DNA of 52,549 bases from Hydrurus foetidus (lineage: Eukaryota). The notes below the pieces were generated by a model that had not been told where the DNA came from, made no database searches, and saw only the letters and a program-made list of their open reading frames with translations. The translations under genes were made by a program, and so were the position numbers. Below are positions 19,218 through 52,549 of this stretch, piece by piece. Position 1 is the first letter of the stretch. The number at the start of each line of letters is the position of its first letter. The DNA is taken from NCBI GenBank assembly GCA_900617105.1, contig UYFQ01000778.1, forward strand, positions 1 to 52,549, read 5' to 3'.

Positions 19218-19745
19218 GGTGAGCAGAAAATGAGACGTTACCCTACATCAGGTAGAGGAACCCCTAATGTCAACTCTGTATCAAAAAGAAGTATCAAATA
19301 TGATGTATTGCGATTGACGATTGACAAAACGCATATTACTGTATTCTGTATTGGGGGATAAACCGTATGGTGGTTCCACCTCTACATACCAAAAAAAAAG
19401 TAAGAAAAGTCAAATAATATGACGCCAGAATTGCAGGGAAATACGTGTCATGTGTGTCGTACGTTACTTATTGAGTTTATCCCCCACTTGGTACGTCACA
19501 ACGTACCCCCTCACAACGTACCCCCCACAATTATTCTGTCGAATACAGAATAGTTACACAGAATACAGAACTGGACTGTCTTTTGGCTTTTGGCTGTCGG
19601 CTGTTTTCGTATTTTCTAAAAAAAACCTGTTGAAGGAAATCCTATGTTGACGTTTGGTTTGGTAATGGGGGTTTCAGTGTGATACTGTCGATCATTACAC
19701 GCCGCTGCATTATAGACTTACCAAGGGCAACTCACAAATTCAAAC

Positions 19746-20357
19746 ATGTTCAGCACCGTCTTCGCACTCGCAGCAATTCTGTCGTCAGCAGCAGCCTTTG
19801 TGCCCACTGGGCGCAAGGTGCAATCACCGTCTCTGCGTATGGCTTTCGAGAAAGAGATCGGTGCCCAAGCTCCTCTTGGCTTTTGGGATCCGATTGGACT
19901 CCTAAAAGACGCCGACCAAGCACGCTTCGATCGTCTTCGCTACGTCGAAACCAAGCATGGTCGTATCGCGATGCTTGCTGTTCTCGGTCATATCGTCACC
20001 AGTAAGGGCGACCGTTTTCCTGGGGAGATCGCTTACGGAGTTCCATTTGCATCTGTAAAATCAGGCCTCGCAGCTTTTGATAACATTCCACTTGCCGGAA
20101 TTGCGCAGCTCTTTTTCTTCATTGGGCTTCTAGAGCTCGGATTCGACAGTGTACAGAGCGAGATTGAAGTTGCTTGCAAGAAGGAAATGACCAACAGAGG
20201 CTGGGATGAGGCTACGCAGAAGAAGAAGGCATCTATTGAGCTTAATAACGGTCGTGCAGCGCAAATGGGCATCTTAGGACTCATGGTCCACGAGAAACTG
20301 AACAATGATCCTTACATCCTCAACTCCATACTCGGTTTTCCAGTTCAATTCAACTAA
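19746..20357 (+). CDS. Lhcf: Fucoxanthin-chlorophyll a/c light-harvesting protein (Lhcf type), plastid-targeted
   Basis: Signal peptide ending AAA-FVP; GFWDPIGL, RLRYVETKHGRIAMLA and ELNNGRAAQMG motifs; intronless. Confidence 0.96.
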   Translation: MFSTVFALAAILSSAAAFVPTGRKVQSPSLRMAFEKEIGAQAPLGFWDPIGLLKDADQARFDRLRYVETKHGRIAMLAVLGHIVTSKGDRFPGEIAYGVPFASVKSGLAAFDNIPLAGIAQLFFFIGLLELGFDSVQSEIEVACKKEMTNRGWDEATQKKKASIELNNGRAAQMGILGLMVHEKLNNDPYILNSILGFPVQFN

Positions 20358-27390: not shown

Positions 27391-28695
27391 CTAATCGAAA
27401 GCCATCTCGTTCCTTGGTCCTTCTGCAGTATAAGCCTCAAAACTGGGAGGGGGGCAACGAAACCACTGAGAGGTTTCGTTGTGATTCATGCAGTTCCAAG
27501 CGTTGTTCAAAGTGAAACATAGGTCGATAATGTTATCAGCTCTTTCAAATCCTGTAAGCAATTGGAATGTGTGCTTTTTACCTATGATCCTCCAGTATTG
27601 TGTGAGGTCACGATACATCCATTCAATACTCTCCCTGCATCCGTTCATTGCTTTGTTGAGCTCAGCATATTCTTCGCCGTCCTTTTTACAGGAGATCCTA
27701 TCTTGCTGAGGATAAGCCGAGTCTCCATAACAGGAAAAATATTCCGCTGGTGGACGCTCTGAGGTAAGCTCTACTAAGCGATCATTGATGTCTGACTCGA
27801 CCAACAGGTGCAAGTCATGTCTTCTGCATGAATAACCTTTGCTGACATGAAACGCCATCCCATTAGCCATACCGATCGACTGTTTTTTGATTCCATGGGA
27901 TTTTTTCCACCCGTTGTAGAAGGCCTCCTGAACAAGATAAGGATACCTAGCGGCGAGGACACCTGGTGCCATTGGCCCCCCCCCTGTCCTGCATGACGGT
28001 ATGATTGTGCAGTCTATGAAAAGTGCTACGAGAAATTCTTCATCGATATCTTCATCGACATCGTATCCATAATGTGATAACATTTTTGCCTTGATAGCAT
28101 CCCTAGATTCTTCCAGATAATTTCCCCAAAATTCGAAATGATCCCGTAGCAAGTAACCCCAATTTTCATTCATCCATCTTGCAAAGTAGATGACACCTCT
28201 ACAAATAGTTGAATGGTGAATTTTGTATTTCTCTTGCAGGTCAAGGTATCGGGATCCAAGCGCACAACGCTCGAGTGCGATGAGGAGCAGCTCTTCACCT
28301 GCAAAGCGGTAACCGAAGTCTGGAATGACGAAATATGCTGGGATGCGGAATCCGGTGAGCAAGCGATGCAGTTGATTTCGGCTTTTGAAACGGTAATCTG
28401 CTGCGATTTTACCCTCTTCTATTAGATTTGAATCGATTGACAATCTCTCTCCTACATAACCGATGTAAATTCTGCGTGGAATAGTAGCTACAGCCATGAA
28501 TTCTCCCGAAATTCTTCTCATGAATCGTATCGCTATCGCTGCCCTATTCTCGTCTATTTCTCCATTCAGAACATCGTGCATTCTCAGGAATAGAGCCATG
28601 AGAACGCGCTTTCGATGGCGGTCAATGCCAGTCAATGCAGCACTGTGGCGACAATTGATGTCGAGGTTCTTTGAACTCGTCTTGTAGACAACCAT
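27391..28695 (-). CDS. Harbinger-type DDE transposase (DDE_Tnp_4-like) of transposon A
   Basis: FIDCT, FYNGWKKSHGIKKQ, RRHD, YGDSAYP and RESIEW motifs. Start is ATG 28695 or 28734. Confidence 0.9.
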   Translation of the reverse strand: MVVYKTSSKNLDINCRHSAALTGIDRHRKRVLMALFLRMHDVLNGEIDENRAAIAIRFMRRISGEFMAVATIPRRIYIGYVGERLSIDSNLIEEGKIAADYRFKSRNQLHRLLTGFRIPAYFVIPDFGYRFAGEELLLIALERCALGSRYLDLQEKYKIHHSTICRGVIYFARWMNENWGYLLRDHFEFWGNYLEESRDAIKAKMLSHYGYDVDEDIDEEFLVALFIDCTIIPSCRTGGGPMAPGVLAARYPYLVQEAFYNGWKKSHGIKKQSIGMANGMAFHVSKGYSCRRHDLHLLVESDINDRLVELTSERPPAEYFSCYGDSAYPQQDRISCKKDGEEYAELNKAMNGCRESIEWMYRDLTQYWRIIGKKHTFQLLTGFERADNIIDLCFTLNNAWNCMNHNETSQWFRCPPPSFEAYTAEGPRNEMAFD

Positions 28696-29140
28696 GCTGT
28701 AAATTGTACAACTGATTGACCAAGACAGACTCATCTGACAAGTATTACGAAGTTTATTTGAAATTTTAAAAACAGGACTCCATAAGGACAGCAATAAAAC
28801 TTAACTGCCATTTGAATTACGTTTGCTACATCAAATCAAGATAAGTGAAATTACAACCATGTTTTCGTATGCGTAAAATTAACGAAAATTTAATTCAATA
28901 ATTTCTTGCGAAAAAAGATCACAACCACTCTACTACGGGCGAACCCCAGGAACTCCGTACCTTACACCGCCATTATATGTCGACATCCAAACTGGCGAAA
29001 AAGCGGCGAAGAAAAAGCGTCTTTTCATGCCACTTTTTGCTGACGAGATTATACGAACAATGTCGACCTTTCAAATAGTGACAGATAGAAGTAGATGTTC
29101 GAACTCGAACGAAGAGACTTCATACGATAACTAAAACAAT

Positions 29141-30603
29141 ATGCTGTCTCTCGAATCAAACGTTTCTCCAAAACGGAAGCTGCTATGGGAGTCTGACGAG
29201 GATACGGAGGAAATCTCTTTCGAATTCAACAGCGGGGAGCTGAAAAGGAAGAGATTGCTGGTTGGTTTGGCCTTTTTTTCAATACTGTCTTTGGACGGCG
29301 ATGATGTTCTTGGTGTCCGTGGTCAAGTTAGAACGGGCAACAAGCACCGGGACAGGAGTCGCATCATTGCTTGGTCCAAGGAAATAGATGACGTCATGTT
29401 TAGGAGACAATTTCGATTACATCGTATTGATTTCCATGATGTGCTACTGAAGATAAATGTGGATTTGGATAAATCGGTTTTGCACGCCGTCAACAGTTCT
29501 GGTTCAGCGGTGTCTCCATACTTGATGTTAATGATAACGCTTCGTATCCTTGCCGGTGCATCGTATCTTGACATGATTCATTATCATGTTCATGTTGATT
29601 CAATATCGAGGATAGTCTGGCAAACTGTAGAATCAATTCATAGGAGAATAGATAACATCAAAGTGGCGAGGAATGATAGTGAATGCAAAGCTTTGGCTAC
29701 CGAATGGTCGGAAATACAGCTGAGGCGATGGGGAACATACGTAGCTGTGGGAACTATTTATGCTGGTGACGGCCTTGTTCTTGAAATCCAGCAACCGTCC
29801 TTGAAGGAGCTTAGAGGTCGATCTATTTCCATTTTTAGAAACAGGAAAGGTTTTTGGGGTCTGATAGCTCAGGGATTCTGCGATGCGTATACAAGATTCA
29901 GTGTCCTTGATGTGAAATGGCCAGGAGGTACCAACGACATAGTGGCGTATAGAATGTCAGATCTTTGTCATCTAGCGATGAATGGACACTTCCCAGAATG
30001 GGCCTCATTTGTTCTTGACGAAGCATACTCCTCTCTCGGTGGAATGCATTTGACACCGTATTCAAGTGGCCAACTGAAGTAAGTAACGAATAAATCCATG
30101 TGTAAACCGTTGAATTGTTTTCTGAATTACTTCCATATTATTGCAGGTTCATGAAATCCCGGAATCCTACGCAGTACATGAAACTGATAGCTTTTAACAA
30201 TATTTTGTCCTCGCAAAGGATTACAATCGAACGCGCATTCGGCATTCTGGTTCGCCGATGGGGCATACTGTGGCGTCCAATCGCCTTTAAAATGAAAAAA
30301 GTATCAAAGATAGTAAGAGTGTGTGCTATGTTGCATAACATTTGTGTAGATAGATGGAAAATAAACAATCCAATCAAATATGGTGATCGTGGGCAGCGAT
30401 GGCCTGATGATGTTCCCGACAGCATCACTAGTGATTCCATATTTCCAGAAGAGAAAGAAATCATCAAGAGATTGTATAATAATTATATAGTAGAACGAAA
30501 AAGAAATGTCAATCAAGGATTGCGATCCTGTATAACTGAGGATATTTACGATGCTGGATTACGAGCAAATCGCGATACTGAGCATTTACCTATTCCACGC
30601 TAA
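29141..30603 (+). CDS. HARBI1-like DDE transposase of transposon B (exons 29141-30078, 30147-30603)
   Basis: TLRILAGASYLD, AGDGL, RNRKGF, WPGGTND, LDEAY and RITIERAFGILVRRWGIL motifs; a GTAAGT..CAG intron restores the frame. Confidence 0.92.
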
Positions 30604-42041: not shown

Positions 42042-42472
42042 TTACTGTTGAAGAAACAACTTTCCGCTCTACTGTTTGTGAGATTGACGAGGCATGGTGT
42101 TATCAGCGACGCTGATAATTTTAGGCGTAGAGATAGCAGTTTAGAGTTTGGAAGCTGGAAAACTCCCCACTTGACTTCAAACTTCGTATCTATCAGTTGA
42201 GTGTTGAGTGTTGGAGTGACTTCGACTTCACTTCGAATTCGTGATCCGATCGATCCAAGTTCCATGTTCGGCGGAAGTAAAATTTTGGGGAAACGGACGG
42301 ACGAACTTCAACTTCTCCTACACACAGAGACAACTCGAACTACTTTTCTCTTTTCTGATGGTCGGCCGGTAGAGTGGGGGACCTAATTAAGAACTGCTCT
42401 CCAAGATTAATTCCAGTAAACGGACTATCAACCGGATGGTACTTCTGAGTACATTTCTGTACTCGTCTGATA

Positions 42473-42790
42473 TGTTGGGGATTCTCAGATTCCGGATACT
42501 TAGCAACTCCGCGTAAGTTGAACCGAAGAGCCAATACTCGTGAAATAGACGATTTGTGTAATCACTTGATATTTAAACTTGTGCACCGTCATCAATCAAG
42601 ACGGCAACGAAGCTTTTACAATCTCAAGTCACTCGCACTCAGTATCCGAAGCAGTCACAATATCGGATTAATGGCTCGTATGAGCCCACGCAACAGACGG
42701 TCCTCGACCCGACCCCGCAGGGTGCGTGCCGCTGACCGTCGGGATCCATACACACATCTACTACAGTGTCTTTTCCCGGATAATCCAACA
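42473..42790 (-). repeat. 3' LTR of copia element
   Basis: Direct repeat of 47798-48115. Confidence 0.97.
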
Positions 42791-42998
42791 CACCCAACAG
42801 GCACACAGTAGATGAGAAAAATGAATCAAACAGTTTATTTTAACGCAGCAGTGAATTTTATTGCATAGCATGCAGCTGCGTTAAATTGTTTAGCATGGCA
42901 GGCAGCAGTAAAGTAAGAATGAATTGATTCGCAACGCAGTAGTGTCTTAAACTAAAATCCCCTCGTGCTATGGTGGTACCCCATTCGGGGTCGCACCC

Positions 42999-45900
42999 CT
43001 AATTCGCTATGCTACCGTCGGTCCATCCCGTCAGCCCGTCCCTCTCTCTCTTGAATTGGCTTCCTTGGAGCGGCTTCGTCAGCACGTTCGCGTACATCTC
43101 CGCGCTTGGAAGGTACTCCACTCTCATTTCCCCCTTGTCCACTCGTTCTTTGACCCAGAAGTACCGGATGTGGATGTGGCGTGTCCGCTCTGCGCCCGAC
43201 CTCCCTCGCTCCACCAGCGCCATGCACGACTGGTTGTCTTGGTATACGGTGACAGGTCCCATGGTGTACCCCTGTGCTGTCAGGAACCTCCTGATGTGAA
43301 TCCCCTGGTTGGCTGAGTCGGATAGTCCGACGAGCTCGGCCTCCGTGCTCGACTTGGTGACGATCAGTTGCTTGGATGATCTGCAATGGACCGCATCCAC
43401 ATCGCCGATGACGATACAGCTTCCCGTGTGTGACCTCCCATCGCTGTGCACCCCGTATGACGCGTCCACGAATAGCCTCACTGACAATCCGCTTACACCA
43501 GGTCGCATCAGTACGCCGCTGTCCCGCGTGTTGTGAATGTAGCGCACCAGCCTCTGCAGCTTCTCCACATCGTCTACCGTGCACTTGTTCACACGTGTGG
43601 CCAGGTAGGCCACCGCTGTGAGGCACTCCGGCTTGGTTCTCTTCGCTATGTACAGTATCATCGCTACTACCTTATGGAACCAGACTCTGGTTGGCTCGGC
43701 TACCAAGGCTGCATCCTCTCGCGTCTCGAATAGTCCATCTGTTGCAGGCGATTTGGCCGTCCCCTGCACCCCTGATGTCTTGACTATCTCGTCTGAGTAC
43801 CCCTTCATGGTGATTATAGCCTGTCCATGCACATGCATATTTGATTGCAGGTCCATGAGCAAGTGTAATAATACCATACCTTTTTCGCAGACCCTCAATC
43901 AGGTGCGACATGGACTCCTTGCTCTTGCTCATGATGAGCAAGTCGTCTACATGAACTGCGGCCGTGCACTGATGACCGTCCGATCCGACTCGGTTGAATA
44001 CGCATTTGTCGTACGCATTGCTAGCATACCCGAGAGTGACCATGGTTGCTCGCAGGTTCTCGTACCATAGCCCCGAACTCTCCACGCACCCGTAGAGTGC
44101 CTTTTTCAGATGGACAATGAGTCCTTCTCCTGAGTCGACGTACTTCCGATATTTATCGTCGATTCCCATCACGAAGGCAGACATGGTGCGGTCCAGGCGC
44201 ATGTGCACTGGCACTCCTAACGTCATGTCTGCGTTTAGGAACGCTCCGCTGATGTCGACTACTGCGACGTGTCTCTTCTCGTGTGCTGCGACAGCCAGCA
44301 TTGTGAATACTGCACTGGTTGATACTGTTGGTGACGAGAGATCGTCGTACAGCTCCTTGTTCTGCTGGTCTCCCCCAGCTACTAGCCTCGCCTTCAATTT
44401 CTGGAAACTCCCATCTGGTTTGTTCTTCCTCTTTATGAACATTGATGAGCGGATGATCGCTGATCTCTGTGACGCTGTGAGCTTCGATCCTAGGACTGGC
44501 ACCCACACCTTCTTATATAGCATTTGTTTTAATTCTTGAACGATAACTCTCTTCGCCTCGTCACCCCTATTTCTCAGCGCTTCTCTCACGCTGATGTTGC
44601 TCGTGTCACTCTTCCCCATTTCGATTCGATGTCTTTTCAGCACTTCCTCAATGCTGTGTAGTATCGATGTTCCTCCCGTAACAGTCGCTCGGACGGACAA
44701 ATTCGTCGCGACGAATGCGCCTTCTCCAGTGCGAAAGAACTCGATGACTCTCTTCTCTGGTGGAGTCAGCTGCTGGACTGATTCTGCACTGGCTGATGTG
44801 CTGAGATCCCCCTCCGTAGGTCGTACTGCTGCGTCCGTCACCGGAGGTTCCGGTACGGGTGACAGTACGGGTGTAAGTACATCGGCAGAAGAGAGGGTAG
44901 AGTGAGGTGGAGGTGGTTCGGTTCCAGTGTGTGTCCCAATTAGCTCCTCAGATTCAAAGATTCTATGCTCGTTTTCATTAGGTATCGATACCCACTTCGG
45001 ATGTGGAATCTCGAGAATGTTGTCTGCTGCGGGCAAGTCGGCTACTGTTGGTTGGGGTTGTTTGACTCGCGGTCCCACTGCTGCTATCTCGACAGTGTCC
45101 TGAGTGGGGGGGGTTGGTAATAAAACGAGGCATATTAGACTTGTCGAGACTGTTAGCAAACAGCAATTCATCAAATACATGCACGCTTGATTTGATTATT
45201 TTCTTCCCTTCTTTTAATGCCATTGCGTTCAGTGTGTTGACGACTGATTGTGGCATTGGGAGGATCTTGAATTGATCCCTTGTGACGATCTTCCCGCTCG
45301 AGAGTGAAAGCATCTTGAACGATCCGGTCCTATTGTGAGTGGGAAGCATAACAATACAGTCTTCAGTACGTGATGCCATTGTGTTATCAGTCTTTGATAC
45401 TGTACACACTGCGTAATCCCCGAACGCCGCCCGAAAGTCCAAGTTCCCGTCAACCCTCCGTCCGGAATACAATTCTCGCGGTGAGAGTCCCCCCGGCCTA
45501 GACCCTGACTGTTGACAGTTGATACGAGATACACAGTATAGAACTAGATAGGTATTACCCAGGTCGGTTAGAGTGAACGGAAGCCTTCCGCAAATGTGCG
45601 CTCGAGCCCGTTCCTTCACCATTTGAATGCGCCGCTCGATTCTGGCGACGTGGCCGCCCGCTGCACTGACATCCAGCTCGATTCCCAGAGCCATCAACTC
45701 GAAGCGAATTTTGCCTATGGCACCTTCCCCGTCGCTCATGATGACTTGCACTGCAAAGTTCCTAGATTTGAGCACACATAACATCTCATCTAGCGCCGCC
45801 TTTACCACGGACGCAGCTCTAGAGGGTTTGCCAAAATCGAGTCGCATTAGGCTGCAGGCAAGGGTGAGATCCAGAGGGGTAGATACGGCAATAAGTATGG

Positions 45901-47772
45901 CTGTGGTGTCTATGAAGACAATGTCCACAGCCAAAACTTGCTCCACCTGCACCAGCGCAGGTGTTAGCGAGATATCAGCGACTGGCGAAGATTTCTTATG
46001 AGTTCGCCCCCTCATGCTCGCCAAGCATTTGCCCCATATGGAATGAGCTATCCTGAAATCGTTCTCCGACACATCAAAGTTGTTCCCCCCGCGGATCATG
46101 GCGATCGCCATCTCAACTGGCGGGTATCCCATGCGTGCCAGCAACTCTCTCGCCCGCCCGGCCGATGCAATTTCCCTCTTAGTGTATCGTGCCATGTTGT
46201 CGCTCACCGTCGTCACGAGAGCTCTCTGGATAGGATGATTGCTCGGCGTCGCTCGCACCATCGAGCGAACGTCGCATACGTAGAAGCGGCCAGTAGATCC
46301 AGTCACAGGTTGTCTACAGAAACTGTAGATGTTGAGGCTCCCAGCCGGCTGAAGGGTAAATCTGCCCGCAGCATGATCGTAGCGAATGTCGGCTCCGCTG
46401 TCAACCATCGCGGCAAATGACAGGATGTTTGCCGTCGCCCCCTGGCTGAAGTAGACTGGCCCCACCTCGCCAAAGTCTCCTTCCATGTCAACTCGAACAG
46501 CATCTGCCTCGAGCTGTACGCCGTTCAATAGAATCCCTCGTTTGGACTTCCTGATATCGGTAAGTAAATTCGGATTGCAAAACACGTTAACCGACGCCTG
46601 ATTGTCTAGCAGGACGTGACTCTTGGAGAACAGCACGACTTCGGTCGTCGTGACGAATGCCGTCTCGTCTGCCGTCTCGTCGTCGTCGAGATCTTCCTCT
46701 ACATCGATGTAGAGCGCTTGTTCGCCGACTTTGCGCTCTTCGCAATCTCTCGCGTAGTGGCCTGTCCCCCCGCATACGAAACAAGTCACTGACGACGATG
46801 GTTTCTTTTTCGGTGTTGTGGTCTTGCCCTTGACCTTCTTTCCCGCGACTTTTTCCTTTGCCGGCATTGCCAGATCTGTCAAAAATGCGGAATGTTGCTC
46901 GCCGCCAAGGGGGACCACCCCGCTCGAGTTCGTCCAAGACGACGCTACCCTGTATGCTCCGGCTAAGGTAGGAGGGTAGCTATTCGGGAGGTTTTGTACA
47001 GCATTGTTACGCATGACAGTGAGCATACCGGTATACCTTTTAGGGTCCAATTTGCATAGGAAGTCGATTGCACGAATCGACTCCTCTACTTCTGCCATAC
47101 CGACACCACGGTTGGCTAGCACCTGGTTGTCAAACCGTGTTTTGAACTCGCCTATGATCTCACGGTCACCTTGTCTAAGGTAGTTGTACCTAATAGTCTG
47201 TTCGTGGATGTTGACTGCTCGCATTGAATCATCCTCACCATAGATATGAGTGAGATGGCTCTTCCTGATGTACTCCCATAGCTTCACGCTATCGAGTCGC
47301 ATTCTCGTTCCCTCGTACCCTGGTTCCTCTCGAACCTTGGACTTTGACCCTGTGGACATGCGTGACCACATCAACGGCCAGAGCTTCTGCTCATCCACTT
47401 TTTGCAATTCTACAGCCTTTCGGCGTGATTCGAACGCATTCAATCTCAATCTTTCGAGAAGTGCAGCCGGGAGCACCACAGTGGCCTCCGCGGGTCCCTG
47501 CACCCGGTTTTCCTCGGCGTCCTCGTCATCGTCGGTCCCTGCTTCGTCTGCACCTTGTCCCGCCGCTGGAGTGGCCGGGTTGTAATCCTCCTCACGAGGA
47601 TAAGGAATGAAGTGACTTGCGTTGGTGGTGAAGAACATGCCTGTCATGCCGTACAGCGCGCATGCTTGGTCCTGCATTTCTTCCCTCCACTGCACCACAT
47701 TGTTGTAGCGACCAATTTCAGAATGCACGCTTCAGTGCCTGATTTTGGTTCCTCTTGCTTCTTTGGTGGCAT
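42999..47772 (-). pseudogene. copia gag-pol broken by three frame disruptions (about 47715, 45110 and 43840)
   Basis: CFVCGGTGHYARDC knuckle, LLDNQAS protease, DIVF/SDGE/ERRI integrase, KARLVAGG/KALYG/HVDD RT and FVDASY/SSTEAEL RNase H, spread over ORFs 44978-47728, 43672-45180 and 42999-43898. Confidence 0.9.
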
Positions 47773-47787
47773 CTCGATGCGCTGATT

Positions 47788-47797
47788 AGTTTAAATA
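47788..47797 (-). promoter_or_regulatory. Non-tRNA primer-binding site TATTTAAACT, complementary to the element's own LTR (47895-47904)
   Basis: Directly abuts the 5' LTR; lacks TGG; part of an 11-bp inverted match 47788-47798 / 47894-47904. Confidence 0.65.
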
Positions 47798-48115
47798 TGT
47801 TGGGGATTCTCAGAATCCGGATACTTAGCAACTCCGCGTAAGTTGAACCGAAGAGCCAATACTCGTGAAATAGACGATTTGTGTAATCACTTGATATTTA
47901 AACTTGTGCACCGTCATCAATCAAGACGGCAACGAAGCTTTTACAATCTCAAGTCACTCGCACTCAGTATCCGAAGCAGTCACAATATCGGATTAATGGC
48001 TCGTATGAGCCCACGCAACCGACGGTCCTCGACCCGACCCCGCAGGGTGCGTGCCGCTGACCGTCGGGATCCATACACACATCTACTACAGTGTCTTTTC
48101 CCGGATAATCCAACA
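47798..48115 (-). repeat. 5' LTR of copia element
   Basis: Direct repeat of 42473-42790. Confidence 0.97.
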
Positions 48116-48479
48116 TGATACTCTAGAAAATTGCAGGCTATCTAATTTTTGATGTGGATGACTGGAAAGGAGTCATATTTGGGGGGTCTAAATGTGTCAG
48201 AATAATCATTTCTTAATAGAAGTCAATGTACGATTTTAGCCCAATTTTCGTGAAACGGATTCTGCAACTAGCCGAATCTGGTCGTGGACGGCTAAAAAGA
48301 TACCGTTAAAGCAAAGCTAACCGGTTAACCGTAAGATAGTTCAATCGGTCCCCGTAGGATGGAAAGGAAACGTTGCCTGCTGCAACTTTGCGACATTTGC
48401 AAACGTGTCCCGATCACTTTCGTTGTAAAGATCAGTATCTGTCTGCGTTGCAAAATTACCCTCCCCCGTATCCAAGAAT

Positions 48480-48940: not shown

Positions 48941-51900
48941 TGTATCTAACGCATAATGGTGGCTGATATTTTAAGCGTGCCCCCCGTTTCGAAATCCAGC
49001 GGGGAATGAGTCCCTCATCGATTCTATGAATGGGCAAGTTGTGGTCTTGGGCGGGGCCTAGGACGTTGGAGCTAAAAGTGGTGGTCGGTTGATGCAAGCG
49101 GTGGGCAAGGGAAGAAAGGATAGGTGGAGTAAACTTGTGTTAGTATTTTACAGTTGAGTATCTACAAGTGATGTGTACGCTAAAGTGCATTCACGTCATA
49201 TGTGGAACTAAGACCTAAAAGTGGAATCTGGGCGTAATATACCTATTGTACCTAGTTAACCTAGACACATTGTATCCCCTTAGGAATGCAATAAGGCTAC
49301 ACTACCCCTTCTTCCTTTTTTGAAGATCTTTGATATGATATACAAAAAAAAATGAAAAAAAGAAAAGATATGTAAAACATATATATGAGATATAGATGAA
49401 ACGATGATGTCAGACTTTTACTGACTAAACTCTCCAAAAAAGACCCGTAGGTAAAAAAAATAGGAGAGAATCCTCATGGATAAAGTTTCAAATATATTAA
49501 GTCATCTATGTTGCTTATTGATTAATTTAGTCATGTTATTATGACGTAAATAATCATGAAGTTTATCAACATCACGAAGACTTGAATAAGGTTCCCAAGT
49601 GTTTTTGTCTGAAGGGTAATTTAACCATTTGACTAAAAACTCTATGTGGGTACGTTGGTGTTTGCCACGATGATCAAGAATGTCTTCAACAAAGTATTCC
49701 ATGTGATCACGTCGTGCAACATCCAACGGATTTGTGATTGAAGGGTCAAATAGAAAAGGTTTCATTGCAGAAACATGAAACTCTGAAGTTTTCTGAGTGA
49801 CTAAATCATAAAGTGTGTAACGCGAATTTTCGCCACTAACGACTTTTAATGGGCCTCTCCAATGCGTGTGAAGACGTGAAGGAGGGGATCCATCGCGATA
49901 GTGCACTAAGACATAAGAGTCTTTTGGATAATCTACATGCTGAAAAACTTGAGACTGACTTTGATGAAGCAAATCTGTGCGAAGAAGTTCTTTAGCAGAA
50001 GCTTTAAGAAGACTGTCTTGCGTTTTGAGTAGATTGCTCATACGCTTTGACAAAGGTTTGTCATCAGTAACATTTCGCTCAGCAGGAGGTAAAAAAATAC
50101 CTCTATCGAGTTTGAGTACATTTCCGAAAAGAAGTTGAGAAGATGATATTTTAAACGATCACTGTGATTAGAATTTAAGATTCGTTGCACAAATGGAAGT
50201 GACGTTTTATAATCTTCTAGTGTGACATTATCGAATGTTAATGCACGAAGATGTCTATTAACTTCTTTATTCATGCGCTCAACAATAGCATTTTCTTCTT
50301 TAGAATATGCTAAAGTAAGACAATGTTGAGTGCCAATAAGAGTTAGAAACTCTCTAATAACTTCGGAAATGAAGTGTGGCCCATTATCAGAACGGAGTTG
50401 GAGAGGTGCGCCGAAACGACCGAAGTGTTGCAAGAGGCATTTAGCTGTTGAAAGTGCTGTAGCATCTTCTGTATGAAACAGTTCAACCCATCTTGTGAAC
50501 GTATCGATAATTACGAGTACGTACCCGCCGTCTGGAAACGGTCCTATGAAGTCTATGTTAAGGCATTCCATAGGTGTGTAAGTAGAAGTCGAGAAACCAT
50601 GAGCATGTATTGGTATCTTTAACATACTCATTTTCTGACAACACGAACAGTGATCTATGAACCACCTGACGTGCTGACGCATATATTGCCATACTATTTT
50701 TTGTCAATGAGACGCTTTAAAGTGCGCTCAAGGCCAAAATGCCCAACTTGTGAATTGTGTACTTTACTGATTGTATTGTACTGATCACGTGTTAGTTTGA
50801 ATTTTTCAATAGTATTAGCAGACATGATTGCATCAGGAGTATATTCCTGAGGGAAATCAACCATGTTATTGCGACAGAGTCGAGACATCGAATCAGCTAT
50901 ATCATTGTTAGCACCAGGTATATATTCAATTTTAAATGAATATTCGGATAAGGCCATAAACCACCGAACAATCATTGGATTTGAATTATCCTTGATGTAT
51001 AACAAGTTACGATGATCTGTACGCAATGTGAACGTACGATCACGTAATAGCGATTTTAAATACGTGCACGAATAAAAGATAGCATATGCTTCTTTTTGTA
51101 TAACAGCCCAACGAAGCTGAGCTTTGTTAAGTGATTTACTGACAAATGCTATGGGCGTTTCTTGACCGTCAACTAGCTGGAAAAGATAGGCACCTACACC
51201 ATAGTCCGATGCATCAGTGTGCAAGTAAATCGGATCGGTGTCACTTAAAAAGTGCATAGTCGTGCATTTGCATTTTGAAATCTCGGATTTGATCAAATTG
51301 AATGCTCTGAGAGCTTCTATTGTCCAAGTTATTTTCTTATACTTATTATAGTTAAGAAGCAACTGATGTAACGGGTATACAACAGTAGAAGCGTTTCTAA
51401 CAAAGTCGTGAAAATAATTAACCAATCCTAAAAAACTTTTGAGTTGTTTAGATAGTACTGGTTTAGGAAAATCTAAGACAGTCCGTATTTTTTCTTGTGA
51501 CATTCTAAGTCCATCTGCAGATAGAACTTTGCCAACATAATCTATTTCGGCATAGCCTAGATAACACTTATTCGGTTTAAGGAATATTTTGTGTTTTCTA
51601 AAACGTTCAAAAACAAGACGAAGTCTAGAAATAAGTTCGTCAATGTCTTTACCGAAAACATTGCAATCATCTATGTACATTTCGCATATAGAGTATATCA
51701 GCCCTGCTAACACAACAGTCGTCATAATCTGTTGGAAATAGGAGGGTGCTTGTTTTGGCCCAAAGGGTAAACGAGTGAATTGATATACTCCGCAGAATAG
51801 TATGAATGCAGTATAAGCACGTGCAGCGAGTGTAAGTGGTGCTTGATGGTAACCTTGAGTGAGGTCAAGTACAGCAAACACTTTTGCTTTATGTGCACCT

Positions 51901-52549
51901 ATTCGACGCAACATCTCACCGATGTGTGGAATAGGATGTGATTTATCTTCGGTACAATTGTTGAGATTCCGAAAATCAATACACATGCGCTTAGTTCCAT
52001 CAGATTTTGAACTAGTAAAACTTGGCTATAATAAGCCGCGTTTGATTTTTCAACAATATTTTGTTTTTCAAGTTTTTTAATTTGACTAAGAATGTCAGCT
52101 TGATCAACTGTTGATTTAGCCCATGGAGGTTGTCTATTTTTAGAGACTCTCCATTGGTCGTCATTGACATGAAAGTCAAAGGGTGGAATATTAGCAGGAG
52201 TGGCCGAAAGTTCACTGCTAAATATATCCTTGAATTCGTGTACTAGTAACCGAAGTTTATTTTTCTGATCTTCATCACCTGCTAAGTTTATTAGCGAGAG
52301 TGGGTCAGTATCAGGAAATTCATCTATCCAAGGTGAAAACGAGTCCTTGATCGAGTCGTCGATTTCGTCCTCATCAGGGGGCACAGCCTCAAAAAGTCTT
52401 TCAGACTCTTGTATTAGTGAAGCTAGAATAACATGTGTTTGGGTTACTGCCGGTTTCACCTTTTGGGTTAAAGGATCGACCTTTGGGGAGCCATCAGAGG
52501 GTTGCAACTTCTCCTTAGGCTGACAGCCACACGTTATATCCACTTGTTA
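48941..52549 (-). mobile_element. Ty3/gypsy chromovirus-type retrotransposon, 3' part (5' end outside the window); putative 3' LTR 48941-49301, PPT 49302-49321
   Basis: Minus-strand PPT AAAAAAGGAAGAAGGGGTAG followed by TGTA; TGTA...TACA ends. The left LTR boundary is inferred. Confidence 0.88.
49502..52549 (-). pseudogene. gypsy pol (RT-RNaseH-IN-chromodomain), frameshifted near 52000, 50690 and 50150
   Basis: MCIDFRNLN, YIDD, HTDASDYG, H..GH..CSCC, DFIGP/SDNG/ERMN, WRGP and chromodomain YFVEDILDHR..FLVKW..NTWEP. Confidence 0.92.

Follow-up and report, generated by a model that had tools for sequence, protein, structure and literature searches.

A Ty1/copia retrotransposon of the alga Hydrurus foetidus that probably uses the 5′ end of its own RNA as the primer for reverse transcription

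How does an LTR retrotransposon begin reverse transcription when the sequence that follows its 5′ LTR does not look like a tRNA-binding site? The question is raised by an element on the minus strand of Hydrurus foetidus contig UYFQ01000778.1, of which we analyzed a stretch of 52,549 nt (positions 1 to 52,549; hereafter, the window). The initial annotation of this DNA had proposed that the element belongs to Ty1/copia, that it is primed by the 5′ end of its own transcript, as is Tf1 of Schizosaccharomyces pombe, and that no self-priming Ty1/copia element had been described.

The limits of the LTRs were set independently of any self-complementarity. Repeat comparison delimits a 5′ LTR of 318 bp with TGTTGG...CCAACA ends (47798..48115, minus strand) and a 3′ LTR that has 316 of the 318 bases in common with it, i.e., 2 mismatches (42473..42790, minus strand). 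Both are flanked by the 5-bp target-site duplication TATCA, found at 48116..48120 on the 5′ side and again beyond the 3′ LTR at 42468..42472 (minus strand). Between the LTRs, gag-pol (42999..47772, minus strand) has the Copia order: Gag with a CCHC knuckle, protease, integrase, reverse transcriptase (RT) with an HVDD motif, and RNase H. Gag starts at the ATG at 47772, and its MPPKK start is common to many relatives. Pfam searches found the CCHC knuckle and an RVT_2 domain (E of 8e-20); protease, integrase, and RNase H gave no Pfam hit in the window (no rve for the integrase) and were assigned by eye from motifs (D-D-E for the integrase) and from likeness to the full-length relative P0003, while the Gag-PR-IN-RT-RH order was obtained by tblastn to the same relative. 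The marks of the Ty1/copia superfamily are thus present (LTRs with TG...CA, a 5-bp duplication, integrase before RT, and an RVT_2-type RT), and the proposed superfamily assignment stands. The host of this Ty1/copia LTR retrotransposon is an alga of the fucoxanthin chlorophyll a/c type: an open reading frame at 19716–20357 has its best match to FCP chains, and the Atlas clusters that it matched are mostly from diatoms.

The copy in the window looks young but is broken. Its gag-pol reading frame is interrupted near 47715, at 45120–45050, and at 43880–43840, and because of these three breaks, the copy is probably immobile on its own. At the polypurine tract position before the 3′ LTR stands an atypical G/T-rich tract, CTGTTGGGTG (42791..42800, minus strand), which is TGTTGGGTG-like, contains no purine run, and resembles the start of the element's own LTR; a similar G/T-rich tract precedes the LTR in two of the relatives described below, L006 (about 2976–2989) and L007. 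The window holds other mobile DNA as well. A Ty3/gypsy element with frameshifts, in which RT, RNase H, integrase, and a chromodomain are recognizable, occupies 49502–52546 on the minus strand, its 5′ end lying outside the window, and has a purine tract followed by TGTAG near 49300. Two DDE_Tnp_4 (Harbinger-type) open reading frames lie on opposite strands at 27391–30082.

Read on the minus strand, CCCCAACA closes the 5′ LTR at 47798, and TATTTAAACT (47788..47797) comes directly after the terminal CA, with no spacer. This candidate primer-binding site is the perfect complement of AGTTTAAATA (47895..47904, minus strand), the predicted self-primer, which lies inside the same LTR. The T at 47894 also pairs with the last A of the LTR, extending the duplex to 11 bp and the motif to AGTTTAAATAT (47904–47894, LTR position 212, 107 nt upstream of the LTR end); the part of the complement outside the LTR is 10 nt. 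A second copy of the primer motif is present in the 3′ LTR (42579–42569, minus strand). Both the site adjoining the LTR without a spacer and the perfect 11-nt self-complement had been pointed out before and were recovered here at the same positions, the eleventh pair being the one made by the terminal A of the LTR.

A match of this length could be a coincidence of AT-rich sequence, a concern already voiced with the original observation. The site is 9/10 A/T, and 1 of 299 non-junction positions in the window with CA followed by AT-rich sequence also reached 10 nt. When dinucleotide shuffles of the LTR were scored at offsets −1 to +3, complements of at least 10 nt appeared in 22 of 20,000 and complements of at least 11 nt in 10 of 20,000; of the 318-nt segments taken unshuffled from elsewhere in the window, 0 of 1848 reached 10 nt. 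The complement between the site and the LTR in the window exceeds chance. Coincidence would also have to account for the longer, family-specific complements that occupy the same place in all eight testable relatives, described below, and we regard it as extremely improbable.

Relatives were collected through Gag. A Gag search returned 111 related proteins, most of them 43 to 83% identical over the best alignment and nearly all without an assigned name, and a scan of the Gag alignment against metagenome contigs gave 300 pattern matches, which yielded 15 loci with Gag 26 to 35% identical. A locus was considered testable if it contained an LTR end with enough upstream LTR, which held for eight loci belonging to five families. 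The seven left out comprise L004, L008, L009, L012, L013, and L015, which offer no readable LTR/site junction with upstream LTR, and L011, which has 36 nt before the LTR end and a best match of 4 nt there, its partner being expected ~79 nt upstream. The L011 site (37–48) is one letter off that of L010 and L014, with the partner beyond the contig, and L013 is nearly identical to L010 in the RT comparison. A direct repeat fixes the LTR end of L001, and the LTR ends of L006/L007 and L010/L014 follow from a terminal inverted repeat that they form with the LTR start; those of L002, L003, and L005 were placed by eye, by analogy. In L001 and L003, LTR sequence upstream of the end was taken from the other LTR copy or an overlapping end on the same contig. 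A search of genome contigs for relatives gave no match, viral contigs gave none to two protein queries or two DNA patterns, and no named homologue came from protein searches, cluster look-up, PDB, or Atlas.

A perfect complement to the element's own LTR, starting at the LTR end, was found in all eight testable relatives. It is 15 nt long with the partner 244 nt upstream in L001; 12 nt in L002 and L005 and 13 nt in L003, each with the partner 77 nt upstream; 15 nt at 137 nt upstream in L006 and L007; and 12 nt at 79 nt upstream in L010 and L014. Counting the last A of the LTR, the complements of L001, L006, and L007 reach 16 nt. Shuffled sequences matched the complement lengths of the relatives in 0 to 2 of 2000 cases. 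As a positional null, 0.075% of 97,600 pseudo-junctions reached 10 nt, a figure in which the true junctions are counted.

The families that share this arrangement are distant from each other, with RT identities of 34 to 48% to the window element and 32 to 69% between families. Across six families, the site matches its own LTR over 10 to 15 nt, compared to 0 to 6 nt for the LTRs of other families. The exception is an 11-nt cross-match between L003 and L010, whose sites are near-identical and which represent the two most alike families. Two pair types occur at 8 of the first 10 paired positions. Pairing is kept with different letters in the five distant families, which is the compensatory change that had been suggested as a check in relatives. 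This comparison across both motifs is one of distant families, close relatives (Gag 45 to 75% identical) lying outside it, and since the families are related, the agreement of six does not equal six independent events. For the clade, the covariation rules out a chance match.

If the LTR motif is a primer, its 5′ end would be that of the RNA. In five of five related families, the sequence TCAHW lies exactly at the 5′ end of the complement (TC/A, the slash marking this end), compared to a background of 0.7 to 1.7% per position in the LTRs of the relatives. TCAHW is an initiator-like motif from diatom promoters, and CACA stands at the start of one diatom gene (PMC4686930). The window copy does not have TCAHW; its start context, GCACA/AG, is a weaker initiator. 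Given this weaker context and the CACA precedent in a diatom gene, we infer an RNA 5′ end at about 47906–47904, inside the LTR.

In RNA begun at 47904, the site duplex is predicted to form the outer helix with a mean pair probability of 0.98, and it dominates the predicted fold in eight of eight leaders (mean pair probability of 0.94 to 0.98). The duplex of the window element is short and AU-rich, with a predicted energy of −6.5 kcal/mol. Folding also predicts a 6-bp hairpin at the U5 end, just upstream of the primer-binding site (47804..47818, minus strand). This hairpin is predicted in the leader folds of four of six families, and one of the two LTR mismatches in the window, at 47815, falls inside it. 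A helix downstream of the site, like that of the Tf1 "pretzel," was no better than in shuffled sequences in six of six families (369 to 858 of 1000).

Covariation demonstrates pairing rather than priming, and the duplex could be real and selected for control of Gag translation, for dimerization or packaging, or as part of the promoter architecture, with another primer being used. Such a role would suit the position of the duplex, whose end, in every family for which the Gag start codon was located, lies 3 to 15 nt upstream of that codon, and it would suit the failure to find support for the extra pretzel helix. It fits less well with the place at which the duplex ends in six of six families, at an offset of 0 or −1 from the LTR boundary, exactly where the 3′ end of a primer belongs, and with the fact that no alternative primer site is present in any of the six. 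We therefore consider a role other than priming unlikely.

The absence of TCAHW from the window copy, its short AU-rich duplex, and the unsupported pretzel helix count against self-priming, as may sequence variation among close copies. In runs of four studies, another letter at 47795, which turns the site into TAATTAAACT, accounts for 60 to 91% of the summed contig depth (13,062 of 14,418 in X1, 6293 of 6983 in X3, 260 of 320 in X7, and 46 of 76 in X9). No partner change at 47897 is listed in those runs, in a listing that omits changes near contig ends and carries no phase. Copies with TAATTAAACT that keep the LTR motif of the window would have an A-A mismatch three bases from the 3′ end of the primer, and the variant without a listed partner change would then count against self-priming. 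At site position 3, each of the five distant families has this variant letter, from which the partner AGTTTAATTA is predicted. One contig across the whole stretch (X9 record 25) has seven differences, six of them in the loop; judging from the tabulated distances to its ends, neither motif appears to be altered. In four runs, contigs connect the primer block with either the LTR end or the leader through joints that skip 74 to 102 nt of the loop, the intervening letters not being given; such joints are expected if the loop is free to vary.

The 60-nt block at 47881–47940, which contains the promoter and primer motif, has a summed depth ~10 times or more that of the flanking LTR in four studies; this core may be common to many families or to short non-autonomous elements. 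The flank of the Copia insertion (48116–48400) is deeply covered in X1 and X2 and may be a repeat itself. A loose end at 48116 in X1 and X2 matches the opposite flank, resembling an empty site.

A partner other than the LTR motif would make the 47795 variant easier to account for. The site might instead bind a host tRNA fragment, namely, a tRNA 5′ half made by cleavage in the anticodon arm, with the LTR complement acting as a secondary or structural helper. Half-tRNA priming is known in several Copia lineages (PMC6317226), 5′-half primers being used by Drosophila copia, Osser, and Bianca, and the reverse complement of the window site fits an anticodon loop (Y32, U33, UAA, and a purine at 37) in one register. 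However, that register lacks the 31–39 stem pair, the common 47795 variant would place a U at position 37, and the other five families fit the loop pattern at no tested register. Six site sequences would also mean six tRNA switches, each needing a matching change in the LTR. No tRNA gene was found in the window. The TGG expected for pairing with a tRNA 3′ end is absent after the LTR at offsets 0 to 5 in six of six families, in keeping with what the initial annotation had stated for the window element. Altogether, judging from the site sequences and from the window, a tRNA fragment appears to be a highly unlikely primer.

The perfect complement and its covariation with different letters across distant families make it likely, with a probability that we put at roughly 0.8, that in the window lineage the 5′ end of the element's own RNA, and not a host tRNA, serves as the primer for reverse transcription. 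On this part, the original proposal gains support from covariation in five families and from the initiator-like motif at the start of the complement. Transcription would start inside the LTR (~47906–47904), and the first 10 to 11 nt of the RNA would fold back over a ~97-nt loop onto the site adjoining the LTR. A cut at the end of the duplex, made by the element's RT/RNase H by analogy with Tf1, would free a 3′-OH opposite the LTR boundary, and RT would extend the freed primer across U5 and R, yielding minus strong-stop DNA. The families vary in duplex length (10 to 15 nt) and in how far the primer start lies from the LTR end (77 to 244 nt), while the primer 3′ end always abuts the LTR end. Variable lengths with a fixed 3′ end suggest that the LTR-end junction, and not a count from the cap, would determine where the cut falls.

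The part of the proposal that fails is its novelty, since Neumann et al. (2019) predicted self-priming for 89% of 203 plant Copia elements of the TAR lineage (Houba and Osr-1) and cite an earlier proposal for Houba/Osr-1 (Capy 2005) (PMC6317226). Their criterion, a complement of at least 10 bp starting 0 to 5 bp after the LTR (PMC6317226), describes the window element too. The two share the Copia domain order, a 5-bp target-site duplication, and a post-LTR site complementary over at least 10 nt to the 5′ LTR, but the window element comes from an algal host. None of 10 full-length relatives from the algal clade has a Pfam hit to rve, UBN2, or GAG-pre-integrase, and the HVDD motif is present in the RT of the window element and of five of six loci. 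Plant Copia elements normally match those Pfam profiles and carry YVDD. In contrast to plant Copia, the algal RT scores only 61 to 87 bits to Pfam RVT_2. The Pfam profile and HVDD argue against membership in TAR. By these sequence comparisons, the algal clade looks distant from plant Copia, and an origin of self-priming separate from that in TAR is therefore plausible.

Tf1/Tf2 and the Tf1/sushi group, including plant Tcn1, resemble the algal elements in the predicted RNA-5′-end primer, the site abutting the LTR, and a 10- to 15-bp duplex, and Tf1/sushi elements likewise have no tRNA site. They differ in their Ty3/gypsy order with a chromodomain, whereas the window element has the Copia order and no chromodomain hit. 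The Tf1 primer is 11 nt long. For Tf1, self-priming has been demonstrated, with a role described for RNase H (PMC4600332, PMC5341516), and cleavage and priming in the algal Copia elements are predicted on that model. The Tf1 pretzel is a three-duplex structure that includes a helix downstream of the site (PMC10085805), and this helix is unsupported in the algal families. The CoDi elements of diatoms (Maumus et al. 2009, PMC2806351) are also divergent Copia of fucoxanthin-type algae; primer sites are not discussed in the main text of that paper. In fungal GalEa Copia (Donnart et al. 2017, PMC5445492), a tRNA site after the LTR is likewise missing, but their Conserved Hairpin Site is a local palindrome or hairpin without an LTR complement, whereas the partner in the window element lies inside the LTR. 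Hairpin priming has been speculated to be ancestral (PMC3601003). Literature searches, which covered neither subscription journals nor repeat databases, returned nothing on self-priming by Copia elements of algae or diatoms. The mechanism proposed here is thus a known one, in a Copia clade where no printed report was found.

RT identity within the algal clade is as low as 32 to 38% between members. We lean toward the broader view, to which we give somewhat better than even odds, that this is a deep, abundant, and undescribed clade that switched to self-priming independently of plant TAR and of the Tf1/sushi group, using 10- to 15-nt primers set by the junction and no pretzel. If true, this would bring the origins of self-priming among LTR retroelements to at least three. 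To date, demonstrated self-priming is confined to Ty3/gypsy (Tf1), and predicted self-priming to one plant lineage of Copia. The covarying primer and site in distant algal Copia suggest that escape from host tRNAs is a repeated solution, in Ty3/gypsy as well as in Copia, and that the RT/RNase H of a Copia element is capable of a Tf1-type cut. Self-priming makes exact predictions, of the start site and of the primer length, and it gives a reason to expect that LTR annotation guided by tRNAs overlooks the primer site of such algal elements.
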